DNA from: a virus
Taxonomy: Duplodnaviria > Caudoviricetes
DNA: 59,328 nt
Reading direction: 5' to 3' (one strand)
Virus record (IMG/VR): IMGVR_UViG_3300010052_000181
Coordinates: 1-59,328 of that record
Shown here piece after piece: positions 629-59,328 of the stretch. The notes under the pieces are model-generated. The model saw only the letters and a program-made list of their open reading frames with translations, did no database searches and was not told where the DNA came from. A program made the translations under genes and the position numbers. Numbering within the stretch: the first letter of the stretch is position 1; the number at the start of each line of letters is the position of its first letter.

Positions 629-700
629 GCGGTACTCCCGAACTCGGACAACACTACAGCGAAAAGCCGCCCGGTTGGACCCGCGGCGGCTTTGCATTTT

Positions 701-752
701 TACGCAGTTTCTGCGTATTTCTGTTGCGCAGTTTCTGCGTATATGCAATAGT
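701..752 (+). promoter_or_regulatory. Two palindromic operators overlapping a putative sigma70 promoter
   Basis: TACGCAG-TTT-CTGCGTA (701-717) and TGCGCAG-TTT-CTGCGTA (725-741); TTGCGC-N17-AATAGT (724-752). Confidence 0.7.
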
Positions 753-800
753 CATTTCACCGAAGCAATCCCGCTTCGGCAACTGGACTAGGAGGCAACC

Positions 801-869
801 ATGAGCGTCAAGCTCACCTTCCAAGTCCGGATCGGCAAGTGGAGACTAGCACTCTCCATCAGCCGGTAA
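801..869 (+). CDS. 22-aa cationic peptide MSVKLTFQVRIGKWRLALSISR
   Basis: GGAGG RBS at 791-795, ATG 801, TAA 867-869; lies between the promoter and the HTH gene. Confidence 0.65.
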   Translation: MSVKLTFQVRIGKWRLALSISR

Positions 870-936
870 CCCGGAGCCGGGTGGGGGTCCAAACCTCACC
901 CGGTCCCGAATATAGCAAAGCAAGGGGAGACCTTCA

Positions 937-1209
937 ATGACGCCTATGGGACTTCAGGAACTGCGCAAGTCGCTCGACCTCTCGCAGACTACCATGGCGG
1001 ATGAAATGGGCCTGTCGCTCCGCGCCTATCAGGAGATTGAAAACGGCAGGTCGCCATTCCGTAAGCTGCATGTTCTGGCTGCCGAAAGGATTGCCCTGGC
1101 CCATGCCGCGCGGGCCAGTCATCCCGGCGCGCTGCCGGCCTCGGTGCTGTCCGACATCATCGTCGTCGCGCGTTCCATCAAAGCGGCAAGTCGCGCAGGT
1201 GCCTCCTAA
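937..1209 (+). CDS. XRE/Cro-C1 family HTH regulator
   Basis: LQELRKSLDLSQTTMADEMGLSLRAYQEIENG; GGGGAG RBS. Confidence 0.85.
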   Translation: MTPMGLQELRKSLDLSQTTMADEMGLSLRAYQEIENGRSPFRKLHVLAAERIALAHAARASHPGALPASVLSDIIVVARSIKAASRAGAS

Positions 1210-1214
1210 AATAC

Positions 1215-1249
1215 AAAAAAAGCCCCGCCACCTTTCGGCGGCGGGGCTT
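1215..1249 (-). terminator. Intrinsic terminator between convergent genes (U-tract on minus strand; ends the late/lysis transcript)
   Basis: AAAAAAAGCCCCGCC-ACCTTTC-GGCGGCGGGGCTT. Confidence 0.8.
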
Positions 1250-1271
1250 CGTCGTCAGGGTACGCGGCAGA

Positions 1272-2462: not shown

Positions 2463-2893
2463 GCCTCGTCTTCGTCAGGCTGAGGTGGCGCTATCCGAAA
2501 GCCCAAAGCATGCCGCCGGCCGCTATGTCGTTTGTTGGCCCACTCCATAGGCTGAATCTTGAAGTCGACGGGCAGGTCGGTCTGCGCCCTCAACCAGTCG
2601 GACAACGCTACCGTCATCAGCAGCCACTTGTTATCCCACTCGAACGAAGACGGATGCGCATGCGGGAACTCGGCGTAGAACGACTTGTCGTCGAGGATCA
2701 GGACGACATCGACGTCCCGCCAGTCAGGCCGGATGATCGAACTGCCGACCAGATACAGGCCGACATGCCCATCTTTGTCGTAGTGCCGATAGGCGTCCCT
2801 GATGTGGCGCGCGGCCATCTCCAGCTTGAAGATGGCCGGCACCCCTACGTGGGTCGCTTTCGCGGCGGGAGCCTTGGCCGCTCGCTTGCTCAC
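2459..2893 (-). CDS. Minimal nucleotidyltransferase (Pol-beta superfamily)
   Basis: LYLVGS....DWRDVDVVL motif plus distal PVDF aspartate. Confidence 0.7.
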   Translation of the reverse strand: MSKRAAKAPAAKATHVGVPAIFKLEMAARHIRDAYRHYDKDGHVGLYLVGSSIIRPDWRDVDVVLILDDKSFYAEFPHAHPSSFEWDNKWLLMTVALSDWLRAQTDLPVDFKIQPMEWANKRHSGRRHALGFRIAPPQPDEDEA

Positions 2894-4011
2894 GCCAGCA
2901 CCGGATCGTCAGCGCCGGCCGCCTCGGCGGGCTCGACATCGCCCTCGTCGGTGCGCTTGCTCTTGATCCAGCCCCACACCGCATAGGCTGCGAGCCCGAC
3001 GCCAATGAGCCCGGAGCCGGCCATCAGCACGTTGGCTACGGTCTGCGCGGTCTCGGCCTCGATTCCGGTCAGCGCAGCTGCGGTCTCGGCGATCTGGTTG
3101 CGCAGCGAGATCACGAGGGTGAGAACAACGCCGCCGCCGGCGGCGTCCTTCACCTCCTTGACGTCGGTAGGCTTCTGCTGGCCGATCTTCTCGTCGGGCG
3201 CCACCTTCAACGCCTCGAGGCGGCGAAACGTCTCGGGCCCGGCAACGCCATCGGCCTTGATCTTCTGCGAGCGCTGGAAACCCTTCACCGCATCGCGCGT
3301 CGAGGGGCCGTAGTCGCCGTCGACCTTCACGGCATAGCCGGCGCGCAGCAGCAGGCCCTGCAGCTCGCGCACGCGCGCTCCTGACGAACCCATGCGCAGC
3401 ATGCCGGTCGCCTTCGAAACCGCCGGCCGGCCGGAGAGCCGCTTGTAGGCCGCAGCCATCTTCAGGTGATAGCCGTCCTTCCGATAGCCCGGCCCGTTGT
3501 AGCCGCGGGCAAAACCGGAGAAATCGAGCCGCTGCAGCTCGTCGATCAGGCCGAAGGCCGCGCAGTATTTCACCATCAGCTCGAGCTGGCCCAGCGCGTC
3601 GCGCCGCGCTTCCTTGATCAGATCGTCGACCTCAGCGAACTCGAGTACCTTCCAGTGCGCCGTCATCACCTGGCCGAGCCCGATCGAGAAGGATTCCAGC
3701 GCCGCCTGCCGGTCGATCTTCGAGGCCCGGGTCACCAGGTCCCAGCGCTTGGCCTGGCTGGCCGGATTCTTGATCGCGCCGGCCTTGGGGCTGGCGAGCT
3801 TCTCGGCCCGCGCCCGATCGCGCGCAGCGCCCTTCAGCCGCCGGTCGAAATAGTGGCCCTCCCAGCGGATGACCGGCTCCTGCCGGCCCTTGACCAGCGC
3901 GAACACCTGGCCCGCACTCTCCACCTCGGCCACCGCCTGGAGGGCGGCCGGCTCGACCTTGATGCGCGCGGCGATCTTCTCGATGCCGGCAAGCGTTTGC
4001 GCGTCGAACAT
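2890..4011 (-). CDS. Endolysin: N-acetylmuramidase (DUF3380-type) + peptidoglycan-binding domain + C-terminal TM
   Basis: AVAEVESAG, EGHYF, SIGLGQVM, FARGYNGPGY; LRMGSSG...VDGDYGPST...ADGVAGPET. Confidence 0.9.
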   Translation of the reverse strand: MFDAQTLAGIEKIAARIKVEPAALQAVAEVESAGQVFALVKGRQEPVIRWEGHYFDRRLKGAARDRARAEKLASPKAGAIKNPASQAKRWDLVTRASKIDRQAALESFSIGLGQVMTAHWKVLEFAEVDDLIKEARRDALGQLELMVKYCAAFGLIDELQRLDFSGFARGYNGPGYRKDGYHLKMAAAYKRLSGRPAVSKATGMLRMGSSGARVRELQGLLLRAGYAVKVDGDYGPSTRDAVKGFQRSQKIKADGVAGPETFRRLEALKVAPDEKIGQQKPTDVKEVKDAAGGGVVLTLVISLRNQIAETAAALTGIEAETAQTVANVLMAGSGLIGVGLAAYAVWGWIKSKRTDEGDVEPAEAAGADDPVLA

Positions 4012-4022
4012 GGCTGGTCCTT

Positions 4023-4349
4023 TCACTTGATGATGCTGAGCGTCACAGGCGCGGTGCCGGCCGCGATCATGCCGAGCCGCTGCGCCACGGCGCGGGAGAC
4101 ATCGAGCACCCGCCCGCGCACGAAAGGCCCGCGATCGGAGATCCGGCACGTCGCCTGGCGGCCATTGTCGAGATTGGTCACCCGCACCATGGTGTCGAAA
4201 GGCAAGGTGCGGTGCGCGCAGGTCGCGGCGCCCTGGTCGAAGATCTCGCCCGAGGCCGTCACCTCGCCATCGAAGCCCGGCCCGTACCAGGACGCCGTGC
4301 CGGCATGCGCAGGCAAGACGGCAGCAAGCATCGCTGCGGCGAGACGCAT
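4023..4349 (-). CDS. rlpA: RlpA-like lytic transglycosylase (DPBB domain) with signal peptide
   Basis: GTASWYG, TASGE, AHRTLPF, VRVTN, DRGPF, LDVS motifs. Confidence 0.9.
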   Translation of the reverse strand: MRLAAAMLAAVLPAHAGTASWYGPGFDGEVTASGEIFDQGAATCAHRTLPFDTMVRVTNLDNGRQATCRISDRGPFVRGRVLDVSRAVAQRLGMIAAGTAPVTLSIIK

Positions 4350-16090: not shown

Positions 16091-17341
16091 TCAGGTAACA
16101 GCGGTGTCGAAAATCTGGAGCGTGGTCTGCTCGATGCCCGCGCCGGCCCCCTCATATTTCAGCGCCTGGAACGGAAGCGTGATCGATTGCCCGCCTTCGC
16201 CAGCCGTTTGGAGATCAGCGCCGCCGAGCTTGATGCGAGGCAAGTAGAACGTCATGGCCTCCGCCGCGGCAGCGTTGCTGGCCGTGAGGTAGGCGAGGAA
16301 TTCGATCTCGCTCTCGTTGATGAAATCGTTGATCAGGTCCGGGTTCTCAAAGAACGCCGTCATCTGGCCTGTGACGTTGGCGCGACCGAGGAAAATTTCG
16401 GGCACCAGGTTGGACCCGACAACCGGCTCAGCGGACGGCGACAGGTCCATCTGGATGTTCGCCGCGGTGACCACGGCCACAGTGTCGCCCCCGATGCGCA
16501 GAAGCCCGTTAACCGCAGCGAGAAGACCCGTTGTCGTGGCCGCAGTGGGCGACGTGAAGAATGGCGCGGAGCTGTCTTCGTAGATCGCCATATTGCGGCC
16601 GAGCATACCGAACTCGATCGTCGACATCCCGGAGGCGGGAAGCTGAGCGTTGAAGCTGCCGACGCGGCATTCCGTGAACAGCCGGGCGATGTCGACATCC
16701 TCGTTCCAGATTTCGATGGCCACCTTGCGGCTGACATGGCTGGAGGCCGGGACGATGAGTTGGCGGCCGACCGTGGCAACGGTGAATGCGGAATCCGCGG
16801 TCATCGTATCGGGCGCCGGATAGACGGTCACCTCGCGATTGGACGTGCCGCCGAAGGCCAAAATCAGGAAGTTCTTCGAGTTGTTGTCGGCGTCGGACAG
16901 GTTCGCGAAGCGCATGATCATGCCTACGCGGAAGCCTTCGGTGACGGGATTGCCGCCAGTGAAGGTGAACTTCGACGTCGGATTATCGGCGGCGACCGAT
17001 GTGAATTCGGTGTTGCTCTTCGAAATCGCCGACGCGGACCAGGTGCCGCGAAACGCCGCTTCGAAGAAGTCGGCATAGGTCAGCGGGGAGAGTTCGCCTG
17101 AGATATTGCCCGGCACCCGGCGGACGCCGTGGCGGTAGTCGGCGATCTGGCGATCGGAGCGGATTTCCGCCGACTGGTAGGTGTCCTTGGACAACGCCAG
17201 CGTCGACCCGACACGCCGCAGAATCTGCGCGCCCGATGCGCCGGGATCGGTGCCGGCGGCCGGTTCGACGCCGGGAATGATCGCGGCGTCGGTGTAGAAT
17301 TTATAGGCAATGCGTGCGGCCACGCCTTCAGCGAGCGACAT
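16091..17341 (-). CDS. Major tail tube protein
   Basis: SAEIRSDRQ..D.RHG...GNISGELS motif; position; GGAG RBS. Confidence 0.85.
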   Translation of the reverse strand: MSLAEGVAARIAYKFYTDAAIIPGVEPAAGTDPGASGAQILRRVGSTLALSKDTYQSAEIRSDRQIADYRHGVRRVPGNISGELSPLTYADFFEAAFRGTWSASAISKSNTEFTSVAADNPTSKFTFTGGNPVTEGFRVGMIMRFANLSDADNNSKNFLILAFGGTSNREVTVYPAPDTMTADSAFTVATVGRQLIVPASSHVSRKVAIEIWNEDVDIARLFTECRVGSFNAQLPASGMSTIEFGMLGRNMAIYEDSSAPFFTSPTAATTTGLLAAVNGLLRIGGDTVAVVTAANIQMDLSPSAEPVVGSNLVPEIFLGRANVTGQMTAFFENPDLINDFINESEIEFLAYLTASNAAAAEAMTFYLPRIKLGGADLQTAGEGGQSITLPFQALKYEGAGAGIEQTTLQIFDTAVT

Positions 17342-45608: not shown

Positions 45609-45821
45609 TCATTCAGCGGCCTCCGCTTTCGGGAGGTCATAGAAATCGTTCGGGAGCACCTGGCCGTCAGTAGCGGCGACGATGCGCTCCATCTGATCTT
45701 TCTGCGGGATCCGCTCGCGATTGATCCACTTCCTCAAGCCAGAAACCGAGCAGTCGCCGATCTTGGCGGCGAGCTCGTCCAAGGGGATGCTTGTGGCTTT
45801 GACAAATTCAGCGAGTGTCAT
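45609..45821 (-). CDS. cro: Cro-like repressor
   Basis: MTLAEF...ELAAKIG...LRKW...RIP....I..AT.G.V.PNDF; divergent from cI. Confidence 0.85.
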   Translation of the reverse strand: MTLAEFVKATSIPLDELAAKIGDCSVSGLRKWINRERIPQKDQMERIVAATDGQVLPNDFYDLPKAEAAE

Positions 45822-45828
45822 GGGCGCA

Positions 45829-45913
45829 AAGTTGCCCACAATGGGTAATTACGTCAACCCTATTTGGGAAACATCGCTAACGCTCCTGACGTGCTACATG
45901 GTCCCGTTATGGG
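45829..45913. promoter_or_regulatory. Lysis/lysogeny switch: three CCC-N5-GGG operators and the cro promoter
   Basis: CCCACAATGGG 45835-45845, CCCTATTTGGG 45858-45868, CCCGTTATGGG 45903-45913; minus-strand TTGACG-N17-CAACTT. Confidence 0.75.
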
Positions 45914-46634
45914 CAACAACCTGAAATCAATCAGAAATTTGAAGGGCTTGACGCAGCAGGAAGCCGCCGATGGCATGCGCGTGTCCAAGGGGCAGTACAT
46001 CAAGCTCGAGCGAGGCGATCGCCGACTCAACGAGGATTACATCATGAGGGCGGCGCGGACGTTCAGGGTCCCGCCCAGCGAGATCATCGCCGAGGATGAT
46101 GACTTGCTGCCCGCCGATCCGGCAGCATCTCTTCAGGGATACCTCGAGTTCGCCGGTGTCGCGGAGGCCGGCGCTTTCCGTGAGGTCGACGTCCACAACG
46201 ACGACCGCCGCCGGGTGGTGCCTATCGCGCCGGATCCTCGGTACAAACGCGCCAGGCAATACGTCTGGCAGATCGCAGGAGACTCGATGAACCGCGCCGG
46301 CCTGCTCGACGGCATGTTCGCGGTAGGCATAGATTACAAGGATTTCGTCGAGTTCTATCGGGACATTGAGCCCGGCGACATCGTGGTGGTCGAGCGGATG
46401 CGCTTCGACGGCCAGGAGCGCGAGCTGACCTGTAAAAAGTTCTGGAAGGAGAGGGGAGGAATCGCCTTCGTCCCTGATTCGACCAATGACAAGCACCGAG
46501 CGATCTCGGTCCCTCGTGACGGCGAAATCGAAGGCGAATCGATAACGATCCTCGCCTACGTCACCGGCGCCTACACGCTGTTCGGCAAGGCGGTTTATGA
46601 TCTCGACGAGGGTCAGCTGGTGAAGCTGAAATAG
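45909..46634 (+). CDS. cI: CI-like repressor (XRE HTH + S24 peptidase)
   Basis: HTH; EAG cleavage site, GDSM Ser, TCK Lys. Confidence 0.92.
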   Translation: MGNNLKSIRNLKGLTQQEAADGMRVSKGQYIKLERGDRRLNEDYIMRAARTFRVPPSEIIAEDDDLLPADPAASLQGYLEFAGVAEAGAFREVDVHNDDRRRVVPIAPDPRYKRARQYVWQIAGDSMNRAGLLDGMFAVGIDYKDFVEFYRDIEPGDIVVVERMRFDGQERELTCKKFWKERGGIAFVPDSTNDKHRAISVPRDGEIEGESITILAYVTGAYTLFGKAVYDLDEGQLVKLK

Positions 46635-58047: not shown

Positions 58048-58231
58048 CGACCGACCGGCCACGCGTGTGCGCGCCAGCGAGGCCGCGATCACGGCGGCGC
58101 TAAACGCGCTGCGCGCCACCGGACACCACGTCCAGGCGCTGTGGATAAGCGGTGGAAAAGTCGAAATCAGGTGCAGTCCGCTTGAGGGCGCGCCCGAGCC
58201 CGAAAAGGATGGAGGCCTCAAGGATTGGTGA
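58028..58231 (+). CDS. Small protein upstream of integrase (possible excisionase/RDF)
   Basis: Position and size only. Confidence 0.45.
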   Translation: MMSNSIDDRPATRVRASEAAITAALNALRATGHHVQALWISGGKVEIRCSPLEGAPEPEKDGGLKDW

Positions 58232-59328
58232 GGTCTGCTGTGAAAGTCGATTATCCCGGGCTGTTGCTCGAGCCGCTGCCTTCGGGTGCCATGCGCTACC
58301 GGGTCCGTCCTGCCGGCGATCGCGCGAGGCGTATCCGCATCCATTGCGGCCCCGGCCACGACGACTTCCAGCGCCAGTATCTCGCGGCACGCCGCGGCGA
58401 AACTCCAGAGCCGCTTAAGGCGGCGTCAGACTACGCCCTTCCGAAATCGATCGGCTGGCTGGTCAACGCCTATTTCGAGTTCTTGGCTCGACGTGTCGAC
58501 GCCGGCACGACCAGCGCAAAGACTGTGAAGAAGAAGCGCAACCTGCTCAATCGTCTGCTCGCCGATCCCGACCGCAAGATGCTCATTCCGCACGAAAAGC
58601 TCATCGAGATGCATGACACGATGGGCGCGACGCCCGCCCAGGCTGACGCCTTCATCGAGGCGGTTGCAGTCATGTACGACTGGGCGATCGAGCGCAAACA
58701 CATGCGGGAAAACCCCGCGCGCGGCATCAAGGCGGTTTACCAGAAGGGGGAGGGCGCAACGCCATGGAATGCCGGAGACGTGAAGGCATTCTTTGCCAGG
58801 CATGCGACGGGGTCGAAGGCGCACGTAGCCATGTCGGTCCTGCTGTGGACCGGCTGCCGTATCGAGGATCTCACCATGCTCGGCCGCGCGCATGAATGCG
58901 TGATCGAAGGGATAGAGGCAGTCCGCTGGCAACCGCTTAAGAAGGGGTCGACGGAGGTTGCCGTGCCGCTGCTGCCGCCGCTGAAGGCGGCGACCAGGGC
59001 GCCGAAGGTGCAGGGCGCAACGTACGTTCTGGGCAGGGGAGGAAAGGCCTACGCGAGCGGCGACTCGATGTCCGCTATGTTCAAGCGCTGGTGCCAAGAG
59101 GCGGGCTTATATAACCTGTCCGCTCATGGGGTCCGCAAAGGCCTCGCTGAGCTGCTCGCGGAGCTGGGTTGCAGCCAGTACGACATCATGGCGATCCTTG
59201 GCCATTCGGAGGCCAAGACGAGCGAGGTCTATACGCGGAGAGTGGAGCGTTGGCGGCTGGCGGCCAAGGCCATCAAGCGAGTCAGTGTGTCCCACGACTG
59301 GTTCTCGCGTGGGACACATTCGGCCTGA
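58228..59328 (+). CDS. int: Tyrosine integrase
   Basis: TGCRIED (R), HGVRK (HxxR), LGH, EVYTR (Y); start 58228 or 58240. Confidence 0.93.
   Translation: MRSAVKVDYPGLLLEPLPSGAMRYRVRPAGDRARRIRIHCGPGHDDFQRQYLAARRGETPEPLKAASDYALPKSIGWLVNAYFEFLARRVDAGTTSAKTVKKKRNLLNRLLADPDRKMLIPHEKLIEMHDTMGATPAQADAFIEAVAVMYDWAIERKHMRENPARGIKAVYQKGEGATPWNAGDVKAFFARHATGSKAHVAMSVLLWTGCRIEDLTMLGRAHECVIEGIEAVRWQPLKKGSTEVAVPLLPPLKAATRAPKVQGATYVLGRGGKAYASGDSMSAMFKRWCQEAGLYNLSAHGVRKGLAELLAELGCSQYDIMAILGHSEAKTSEVYTRRVERWRLAAKAIKRVSVSHDWFSRGTHSA

Follow-up and report, generated by a model that had tools for sequence, protein, structure and literature searches.

A compact cassette of rhizobial prophages carries a conserved 22-codon reading frame beside a diversified, operator-matched HTH gene

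Results

A short cassette recurs across rhizobial phages and prophages

The DNA analyzed here (the window) is a complete IMG/VR provirus record of 59,328 bp, IMGVR_UViG_3300010052_000181, from a temperate, lambdoid-style phage of a high-G+C host. It contains a short cassette with only two genes, a 22-codon small open reading frame (sORF) and a gene for an XRE-family helix-turn-helix (HTH) protein, and with terminators on both sides. An original prediction, made from the letters alone, described positions 701 to 1209 as a self-contained operon with a layout like that of anti-CRISPR (acr-aca) loci. It proposed twin near-identical palindromes over a promoter, a hairpin at 760-779, a GGAGG motif, the sORF, a second hairpin and the HTH gene, and each of these was recovered in place. 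The palindromes (701-717 and 725-741) can also be seen as a 19-nt direct repeat, 700-718 and 724-742, whose copies are 95% identical and 24 bp apart. Sense-strand features of the cassette, including those added by folding and comparison, are given below.

701-717, both strands: operator 1, TACGCAGTTTCTGCGTA, a perfect palindrome of 7+3+7 nt (TACGCAG-TTT-CTGCGTA)
724-752, plus strand: putative sense promoter P_s, with -35 element TTGCGC (724-729), a 17-nt spacer and -10 element AATAGT (747-752)
725-741, both strands: operator 2, TGCGCAGTTTCTGCGTA (TGCGCAG-TTT-CTGCGTA), overlapping the -35 element and spacer of P_s
760-779, plus strand: hairpin 1, CCGAAGC-aatccc-GCTTCGG, at the predicted 5' end of the sense RNA
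783-830, plus strand: compound helix predicted to sequester the start region (minimum-free-energy fold)
791-795, plus strand: Shine-Dalgarno (SD) sequence GGAGG, 5 nt ahead of the ATG
801-869, plus strand: sORF of 22 codons plus TAA (867-869), with its ATG at 801, encoding MSVKLTFQVRIGKWRLALSISR
831-866, plus strand: hairpin M, inside the sORF (codons 11-22)
872-908, plus strand: hairpin 2, of 14 pairs, beginning 3 nt past the stop codon
937-1209, plus strand: XRE-family HTH gene, 90 aa (Pfam HTH_3, E = 8.7e-08)

A blastn search with 600-1300 against 50,697 phage records returned one match, Rhizobium phage RHph_TM3_3_3, and only over 759-942 (82% identity). The matching segment comprises the leader, the sORF and both hairpins, and it ends at the start of the HTH gene; judged from this alignment, the conserved part of the cassette is the leader and not the HTH. 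With a degenerate pattern of codons 1-10, 11 viral contigs were recovered, each of which carries a 22-codon ORF. A second pattern, chosen against circularity, fixed only hairpin 1, GGAG and ATG, and hit 50 viral contigs; 47 of these hold intact ORFs of the family, one is cut by the contig end and two are chance matches. When codons 1, 4 and 5 were additionally fixed, the cassette was found in 13 species genomes, 12 with an intact ORF, belonging to Rhizobium, Sinorhizobium/Ensifer, Mesorhizobium, Agrobacterium, Neorhizobium, Aminobacter and an unclassified Rhizobiales isolate. De-duplication left 62 distinct modules and 49 distinct ORF DNAs from rhizobial (pro)phages and from the genomes of Rhizobiaceae and Phyllobacteriaceae species, a recurrence that bears out the self-contained layout and sets chance aside.

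The family was also approached from its HTH end. A search based only on an HTH motif, derived from a 12-sequence subset because the full alignment was too divergent, identified 27 loci. The canonical sORF stands upstream of the HTH gene in 25 of them; one (L082) has a divergent 22-codon ORF, MSKRLTLHIRIGKWRVTLTISR, that keeps length and residue classes, and one (L083) has none. Single-sequence searches with the HTH gave no match among viral or genome contigs and two proteins by word index, and an exhaustive HMMER search returned 313 representatives at E <= 0.001, as proteins without genomic context.

Individual loci show the cassette in altered form. In L083, an IMG/VR contig, matching twin operators (CCACGGTTTTCGTGG and CCACGAAAACCGTGG) and a promoter lie at about 1300-1500, with the HTH start roughly 45 nt past the -10 element; this locus is a natural peptide-less version of the cassette. 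The only broken sORF copy, at about 5659 of a Sinorhizobium shofinae contig (L061), is frameshifted past codon 12 and retains the hairpins, operators and HTH. Plasmid pMspAR02b of Mesorhizobium sp. AR02 (L003, 2500-2960) carries a decayed remnant in which hairpin 2 is identical to that of the window and the stretch to CAATG is present; its HTH-like frame leaves the family pattern after about 45 codons, no sORF lies upstream, and the match is unannotated.

A conserved frame predicted to encode a cationic peptide

Conservation of the ORF had been named as a check on its reality, and it holds up well: frame, length and residue class are kept in 48 of the 49 distinct ORF DNAs, an sORF lies upstream of 26 of the 27 relatives found through the HTH, and GGAG and ATG are invariant at optimal spacing in all 56 aligned sequences. 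Summed entropy over the 49 DNAs is 11.3, 2.8 and 10.0 for codon positions 1, 2 and 3; in an alignment of this kind, three-base periodicity with a quiet second position is the signature of a conserved residue class. The ORFs specify 38 distinct peptides, in which M1, L5, R10, G12, W14 and R22 are invariant and which follow the consensus M-S-x-K-L-[TS]-h-Q-V-R-h-G-[KR]-W-R-[LV]-[TA]-h-[ST]-h-[SGA]-R, where h is hydrophobic. Conservation extends to the nucleotides, with codons 4, 5 and 10 invariant and codons 8-9 nearly so, synonymous sites included (39 distinct ORFs). We take the sORF to be translated, a prediction drawn from these features of its sequence.

As originally noted, the peptide of the window, MSVKLTFQVRIGKWRLALSISR, has five lysine or arginine residues and no acidic ones, giving a net charge of +5. 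The amphipathic beta pattern that had been proposed for it is strong in residues 2-11 (hydrophobic moment of 1.09 at 180 degrees, matched by 0.6% of 5000 shuffles) but weak in residues 13-22 (23% of shuffles). Mean Eisenberg hydrophobicity is about 0, and the five basic residues are spread over the chain. The peptide has no match in Pfam, PHROGs, NCBIfam or PADLOC and none among Protein Data Bank sequences at E <= 10. Moreover, the sORF is unannotated in the GenBank record of RHph_TM3_3_3 and in every other record examined. A frame this small escapes gene callers, yet it is among the most conserved pieces of these mosaic phages. Our literature search found no description of the cassette or of the peptide string; supplementary tables of rhizobial small-proteome and Ribo-seq studies lay outside its scope and may list the ORF.

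The leader is predicted to fold over its own start signals

The sense leader (759-945) folds more stably than its dinucleotide shuffles (z = -5.56; 0 of 200 as good). Across 61 mutually related sequences, with the window's own fold taken as the structure, 95% of alignment cells are paired, versus 33-52% when the partners are slid; 13 pairs are changed on both sides, and none of 500 shuffles reaches any of five structure measures. Hairpin 1 consists of seven pairs, with 100% of cells paired and one pair changed on both sides. Beyond it, the SD and AUG are predicted to be sequestered by codons 5-10 of the sORF itself. The 5' untranslated region (UTR), including the SD (783-795), pairs with codons 6-10 (818-830) to form helix 2 (89.6% paired, two pairs changed on both sides), and the UG of the AUG together with codon 2 (802-806) pairs with codon 5 and the next base (812-816) to form helix 3 (100% paired). 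L016 and L082 carry a compensatory C-G to U-A exchange in the SD-sequestering helix, a V9I codon change being matched in the UTR. The frozen synonymous sites of the sORF are accounted for by this pairing of its codons with the SD/AUG region.

Two further structures follow. Helix 4, which forms hairpin M, has 89.9% of its cells paired and a single pair changed on both sides. Hairpin 2 has 99.3% of its cells paired and 9 of its 14 pairs changed on both sides, with G-U the commonest pair at two positions; such frequent G-U pairs point to selection of hairpin 2 as an RNA structure of the sense strand. The covariation of hairpin 2 and the sequestration of the SD and AUG by ORF codons are new relative to the original prediction, as are the minus-strand promoter and terminator and the orientation of the 3' terminator described below. 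A search of Rfam found no family at E up to 10 in 400-1500, with only noise around the 3' terminator; none of Rfam, Pfam, PHROGs, NCBIfam and PADLOC holds a model for the leader or the peptide. The leader also contains an imperfect 22-nt direct repeat (766-787 and 822-843, 77% identity), which joins the loop, 3' arm and next bases of hairpin 1 to sORF codons 8-15.

A structure so well kept invites the reading that RNA is the point of the element, with the 183-nt block acting as convergent regulatory transcripts or as a trans-acting small RNA and the frame merely tolerated or secondary. The invariance of several codons at synonymous sites would fit, as would strong folding of both strands (z of -5.6 and -6.6), abundant compensatory change in hairpin 2 and a ratio of nonsynonymous to synonymous change (dN/dS) that leaves the sORF frame undistinguished. 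However, an RNA element would not readily explain the three-base periodicity with its quiet second position, the frame intact in 48 of 49 DNAs, or the SD and ATG held invariant at optimal spacing. It also sits poorly with the divergent ORF of L082, which retains length and residue classes, and with the lack of any Rfam match. We regard a purely RNA-centered element as very unlikely.

The HTH and its operators change together

With 32.5 bits against HTH_3 (Pfam cut-off 23), the HTH protein belongs to the XRE superfamily, and its start at 937 is backed by an invariant CAATG. An AlphaFold2 model shows a five-helix XRE fold (predicted local distance difference test score, 96.2). Its nearest folds in Foldseek are controller proteins of restriction-modification (R-M) systems (2ef8, 2b5a and 1y7y), Aca2, HigA2 and HipB, all weak at E 0.02-0.06, and a profile of 36 HTH sequences matches Aca10 (7xi5, E = 0.0012) and Aca2 (E = 0.008-0.009) weakly and only over the HTH motif. 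Profile and fold searches place the protein in no recognized Aca family, the Aca2 fold (E about 0.03) standing amid many other XRE proteins. Against NCBIfam antitoxin models (Y4mF/HipB-type and MqsA-type) it reaches at best 26.7-28.2 bits, where the cut-off is 71.65, and is not a member. By these scores the HTH is an XRE-superfamily protein of no named family.

Mean pairwise identity among the HTH proteins is 0.33, compared with 0.76 for the peptide; the window HTH is 22-46% identical to those of other modules, all of which form one family. Each module has two operator palindromes before hairpin 1, and the sequence of these palindromes changes with the recognition helix of the HTH, as listed here.

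Helix RTYENLE: operator CCACCAAAATGGTGG, 13 of 13 modules (one with G for A in one operator)
Helix R[ST]YED[LIV]E: operator CCACG(G/A)nnn(C/T)CGTGG, 15 of 15 modules
Helix LRGYQKLE: operator CGAACnnnGTTCG (CGAAC...GTTCG), 4 of 4 modules
Helix PLRSYQDIE: operator ACGTATTACGT / CACGTAATACGTG, 4 of 4 modules
Helix F-R-x-[YF]-Q-D: operator GCACGGTTTTCGTGC, 9 of 10 modules; the tenth carries ACACGGTTTTCGTGC
Helix SLRAYQEIE (window): operator CGCAGTTTCTGCG

The suggestion that the HTH silences the cassette promoter gains from this co-variation, which is the best available evidence for the predicted binding of the HTH to the twin palindromes. We accordingly treat the HTH as most likely a dedicated, private autorepressor of that promoter. 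The 13-nt operator core, CGCAGTTTCTGCG, occurs exactly only at the two operators within the 59,328 bp.

P_s was placed by register with 61 relatives; a consensus scan made no call there. The pattern TTGCnn-N17-nATAAn keeps a constant register across the 61 modules, the commonest base at its named positions being present in 44-59 of them. Transcription is predicted to start at about 759, and the -10 element ends 7 nt ahead of hairpin 1. The 24-bp operator period of the original prediction is real in the window but peculiar to it, since most relatives have operator starts about 30-31 bp apart with the -35 element between them. In most modules operator 1 lies directly upstream of the -35 element and operator 2 within the spacer, whereas in the window operator 2 has moved 7 bp onto the -35.

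Operator-like sequences also occur away from the promoter. A perfect palindrome at 17217-17229 (CGCAG-ATT-CTGCG) has the operator half-sites with one spacer base changed, and a match with at most one mismatch is rare by a rough count. It lies inside a minor-tail-protein gene (16091-17338, minus strand), about 38 codons from the start and away from any promoter, and may be a chance occurrence or an auxiliary site. Within the HTH gene itself, CAGGAACTGCGCAA (955-968) spans codons 7-11 and has 93% complementarity to the left portion of operator 2 (724-737), in effect half an operator some 200 nt past the promoter.

The acr-aca-like layout noted at the outset suggests an alternative in which the unrepressed promoter pulses an anti-defense or host-takeover peptide early in infection, before accumulating HTH shuts the promoter. 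Gene order favors it, with the effector first, the HTH last and inverted repeats over the promoter, as do the weak matches to Aca10 and Aca2 and the presence of Aca2 among the top folds. RHph_TM3_3_3 and the window element are both temperate and must establish infection. Moreover, diversified HTH/operator specificities would let an incoming phage evade the HTH of a resident prophage, a rationale that a toxin model lacks. In other respects the analogy fits poorly. Anti-defense genes typically have a patchy distribution and change fast, and acr-aca loci combine a variable effector with Aca as the conserved marker; here variation lies in the HTH and its operators, and the peptide stays nearly the same across phages from six or more host genera. 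Sequestration of the SD and a predicted full-length antisense RNA also fit poorly, and to our knowledge neither is a feature of acr operons. We likewise know of no Acr as short as 22 residues, and the Aca similarity is confined to a generic HTH motif that falls far under any family threshold. This early-burst alternative remains serious, although we judge it unlikely.

A predicted antisense unit faces the sORF

Elements on the minus strand would form a second, convergent transcription unit, and the cassette is bounded by the last of the following features.

909-937, minus strand: putative convergent promoter P_as, with -35 element TTGAAG (937 to 932), a 17-nt spacer and -10 element TATATT (914 to 909) with TG ahead of it
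About 902 to 660, within 655-903, minus strand: predicted antisense RNA of about 240 nt, from P_as and the upstream terminator; fold z = -6.58
655-695, minus strand: predicted upstream terminator hairpin and insulator of the cassette, G+C-rich, stem 666-671/685-690, with UUUUC on the minus strand and a weaker T-run on the plus strand
1219-1250, minus strand: 3' terminator hairpin with a 14-pair stem and a T-run on the minus strand only

P_as is the sole promoter-like site that the consensus scan called in 300-1600. Its -35 element overlaps the HTH start codon, and its predicted start is at about 902. TTG and TA stand at a fixed 17-nt spacing in all 62 distinct modules (consensus TTGAAx ... TA[TC][AC]T[TC]), and the spacer, which is the SD region of the HTH gene, varies freely between modules. 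CAATG is invariant before very different HTH N-termini because the putative -35 element of P_as sits there. By our own crude criteria, a terminator-like hairpin with a T-tail lies upstream of operator 1 on the minus strand in 48 of 60 modules and on the plus strand in 33 of 60; the hairpin at 655-695 forms in the antisense fold. The predicted RNA would extend across hairpin 2, the whole sORF with its SD, hairpin 1 and the operators and leave the HTH ribosome-binding site uncovered.

In metatranscriptomes, four runs from four studies each yielded a single short contig of 168-191 nt, at a depth of 2-3.5, that aligns with 697-916 at 85-95% identity. Two of the four extend upstream of the predicted sense start; the contigs are unstranded and DNA carry-over is possible, so we read them as a weak hint of transcription. 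A share of at most 0.07 of the sampled words was present in any one sequencing run.

The terminator that had been placed after the HTH gene exists as the hairpin at 1219-1250, but a T-run follows it on the minus strand alone, in the orientation of the lysis operon. It is therefore foremost the terminator of that convergent operon and, for the HTH transcript, at best a weak bidirectional stop.

Other uses of the minus strand were considered and rejected. A conserved antisense ORF is excluded, as no frame is open in more than 32 of the 62 modules. We also considered a late promoter unit, in which the minus-strand promoter, leader and terminator would form an analog of lambda PR'-6S-tR' served by a NusG-like antiterminator. 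In the window, however, the cassette lies downstream of the whole late operon with no adjoining antiterminator gene, and elsewhere its neighbor is a primase gene or an unrelated one.

The position of the sORF between folded RNA and a regulator gene raises a further alternative, in which the sORF is a cis-acting upstream ORF that works through an arrest peptide or translational coupling. Its translation would remodel hairpins M and 2 and so set the expression or stability of the HTH message, the HTH being the real product. The ORF stops 3 nt before a covarying sense-strand hairpin, its invariant W14, G12 and C-terminal R22 beside the stop codon recall arrest peptides, of which TnaC is an example, the leader is far more conserved than the gene behind it, and one relative has the HTH without the sORF. 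Against this, the HTH apparently regulates its own promoter only (the window holds no second exact operator), and a device for tuning a regulator without another target would therefore have no output. The HTH gene also owns an SD that hairpin 2 does not sequester in the fold, and the predicted antisense RNA would miss its ribosome-binding site. A cis-acting leader peptide is, on this balance, quite unlikely.

Genomic setting

The cassette lies in the following setting within the window.

1272 onward: lysis block, ending at 1272, with a muramidase endolysin gene (2890-4149) followed by DUF1515 and holin-like genes
45864-46631: CI-like S24 repressor gene, facing a Cro-like gene (45609-45836)
58225-59325: integrase gene

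The minus strand carries replication genes, then terminase, portal, capsid and tail genes. The cassette stands just past the last late (lysis) gene, inverted, at the prophage end opposite the integrase, so that its neighbor is the lysis block. Other modules have different neighbors. In RHph_TM3_3_3, an isolated temperate phage (L002/L097; MN988468.1, record 1-1422), the cassette has a NusG-like antiterminator gene on one side and a tRNA-Met, ahead of the terminase genes, on the other, and its minus-strand promoter is co-oriented with the late genes. Over 49 loci, the right-hand convergent neighbors are NusG-like phrog_25909 (6), primase/polymerase phrog_906 (about 10), phrog_6836 (6), phrog_21451 (3) and others. 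With few exceptions the cassette is oriented against the operon reading into it, and terminators stand on both sides. This is the anatomy of a moron or mobile accessory cassette, presumably expressed on its own in the lysogen.

On the minus strand left of the cassette (1-640) are the DUF982 gene at 359-628 (Pfam E = 3.1e-18), an ORF of 31 codons at 267-362 that includes a hydrophobic stretch, and an ORF resembling a zinc ribbon, which extends to the record end (1-231). These may be morons, or host DNA beyond the true prophage end.

RHph_TM3_3_3 and the window phage both have a CI-like S24 repressor, and this bears on a reading of the cassette as an induction switch. The peptide would then be an antirepressor of the master repressor or of a host factor such as LexA, and the HTH would time its synthesis. 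Comparable modules of a transcription factor and a small ORF (TF-smORF) are outlined in a preprint, where an XRE-type factor of a phage controls a neighboring small ORF whose product inactivates cI (bioRxiv 10.1101/2022.09.16.508337). In the modules outlined there, however, the factor and the smORF are divergent, the factor activates, and the smORF has 171 nt, compared with 66 nt here (bioRxiv 10.1101/2022.09.16.508337); in our cassette the genes are co-directional and operator 2 occupies a position for repression. An invariant peptide is also hard to square with master repressors that are presumably heteroimmune. We consider this reading very unlikely.

Discussion

Observed directly at this locus are a conserved block of about 183 nt that combines a translatable ORF with covarying RNA, a matched operator-HTH pair, convergent promoter-like elements, and terminators. 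We are largely confident of this architecture taken alone. What it is for can be proposed with far less assurance, and this applies equally to the roles first suggested for the peptide (anti-defense peptide, exclusion factor or toxin). Our tentative preference, which we hold at somewhat less than even confidence, is that the cassette is a mobile, insulated prophage unit with a conserved cationic peptide as its product, that the rest of the unit acts to hold synthesis of this peptide low and conditional, and that it works in the manner of a toxin-antitoxin (TA), addiction or abortive-infection system, with an RNA antidote of the type I kind and a private transcriptional repressor; we assign it to no named family. 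We infer that the peptide, rather than the RNA, is the output; an RNA output is less likely, and so are the cis-acting leader peptide, the TF-smORF-type antirepressor and the pure RNA element.

Under this preferred reading, P_s would fire at about 759, as its conserved geometry suggests, and give an mRNA that carries hairpin 1, the sORF and the HTH gene. A dimer of the HTH would then bind the two palindromes at the -35 element and spacer and shut P_s, with no other clear target in the phage, as the operator/helix co-variation suggests. In the finished mRNA the SD and AUG would be paired with codons 5-10, so that ribosomes would load mainly on nascent RNA, an expectation based on the fold and its conservation. 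From the convergent promoter would come an RNA of about 240 nt, complementary to the sORF message, that may block its translation or trigger its decay. The peptide would be abundant only where repressor and antisense RNA are absent or outrun, as might occur when the element enters a naive cell, when the prophage is lost, or when host transcription is stopped by a superinfecting phage. There it would hit a target common to all hosts, most likely with harm to the cell; tight control, and a peptide that is invariant while its regulators vary, are the grounds for this step. Layered restraint and a peptide unchanging across at least six host genera, set against regulators that diversify, favor a potent effector acting on a conserved cellular target.

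Several points weigh against this reading. The Nei-Gojobori pN/pS ratio, a check that had been proposed for the ORF, is 0.44 in the sORF frame but 0.47 in frame +1 and thus does not single out the frame; as the ratio is indecisive, the coding case stands on periodicity, frame integrity and the SD. RNA pairing accounts for part of the nucleotide conservation. Toxicity, binding and expression of the peptide are themselves postulated. The peptide is non-hydrophobic, too short and too charged for a membrane-spanning helix, and in this unlike classical type I toxins. The antisense promoter and terminator are likewise predictions, and since the plus strand has a T-run in 33 of 60 modules, the terminator may merely insulate; hairpin 2 favors the sense strand and hence gives no evidence for an antisense RNA structure. 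A plain addiction module would have no obvious need of diversified HTH and operator specificities, and L083 keeps operators and HTH without the sORF or hairpins.

A bolder version, which we consider possible though doubtful, would make the cassette a new class of phage-borne micro-effector: a near-invariant, cationic, beta-hairpin-like peptide, spread among temperate phages across Rhizobiaceae and Phyllobacteriaceae, that acts on a core target and is held back by three independent locks, namely a private XRE repressor, the self-sequestered ribosome-binding site and a countertranscript of full length. It would be a kill or takeover switch that fires on infection, prophage loss or superinfection. 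The operator specificities, at least seven or eight and exchangeable, would then mark a competition among prophages over firing or silencing a common weapon.

Should the peptide turn out to be a toxin or takeover factor, it would rank among the shortest known phage effectors and give access to a conserved weak point of rhizobia that matter to agriculture, and the cassette would offer a compact model of protein repressor, mRNA folding and antisense RNA layered on one gene. If the sORF is instead a cis-acting leader, the cassette would be an ordinary autoregulated HTH gene with an elaborate leader, of much lesser import. The sets of recognition helices and operators form a natural series of orthogonal pairs for dissecting XRE specificity.

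Comparison with known systems

Among type I TA systems, ibs/sib has a fully overlapping cis-antisense RNA, and tisB/istR-1 and dinQ/agrB are repressed by LexA. Our cassette resembles them in its very short ORF, a leader that would hide the ribosome-binding site, a putative convergent promoter for a complementary RNA, probable added repression, and a prophage or mobile setting. A folded mRNA that blocks initiation is predicted here as well, by SD/AUG helices that are 89.6% and 100% paired across 61 sequences. However, the peptide is cationic, amphipathic and non-hydrophobic, the repressor is private and co-transcribed, and both the toxicity and the antisense RNA are putative. A hydrophobic toxin with a membrane helix is not what we find (22 residues, Eisenberg hydrophobicity about 0, beta periodicity), and for this reason we claim a likeness of working, not membership in type I TA.

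The acr-aca operons, autorepressed by Aca1 or Aca2, share the order of effector first and HTH last, two inverted repeats over the promoter, and an HTH with an Aca2/Aca10-like fold. They differ in that conservation is reversed in our cassette, with an invariant effector and a variable HTH, and control at the RNA level is added. No link of the cassette to CRISPR-Cas or another defense system was found.

R-M controller proteins (C.AhdI, C.BclI and C.EcoT38IS) are among the top structural matches of the HTH (2ef8, 2b5a, 1y7y). Such C proteins are small XRE dimers that bind two palindromes around their own -35 element, first activating and then repressing. In most modules the placing of the two sites, the first ahead of the -35 and the second inside the spacer, would by analogy permit the same sequence of events. 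The cassette is, however, without a restriction or methylase gene, and its 22-codon ORF lies upstream of the regulator and not downstream.

Type II TA systems with an XRE antitoxin (relatives of higBA, mqsRA and hipBA) likewise have toxin-then-HTH order and autoregulation at palindromic operators, and their HTH proteins give weak matches to ours. The scores are far below cut-offs, however, and 22 residues cannot form a HigB, MqsR or HipA fold.

In pMV158 copG-repB with RNAII, and in the P22 immI region of arc-ant with sar RNA, a small autorepressor is combined with a countertranscript inside the operon. The likeness is that autorepressor and countertranscript act on one short operon. There, however, the repressor is encoded by the first gene and the antisense RNA lies over the ribosome-binding site of the second, whereas in our cassette it is the upstream sORF, rather than the start region of the HTH gene, that such an RNA would cover.

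The TF-smORF modules pair an XRE-type phage regulator with a tiny ORF as free-standing units at varying sites in temperate phages, and they drive SOS-independent induction (bioRxiv 10.1101/2022.09.16.508337). Our cassette shares the pairing and the mobility of site but is co-directional and probably repressed, with a shorter and invariant peptide, and so departs from the divergent, activating arrangement that defines those modules in that account. Taken part by part, its proposed control logic combines known motifs: an autorepressor with twin operators, sequestration of the ribosome-binding site, and a countertranscript.

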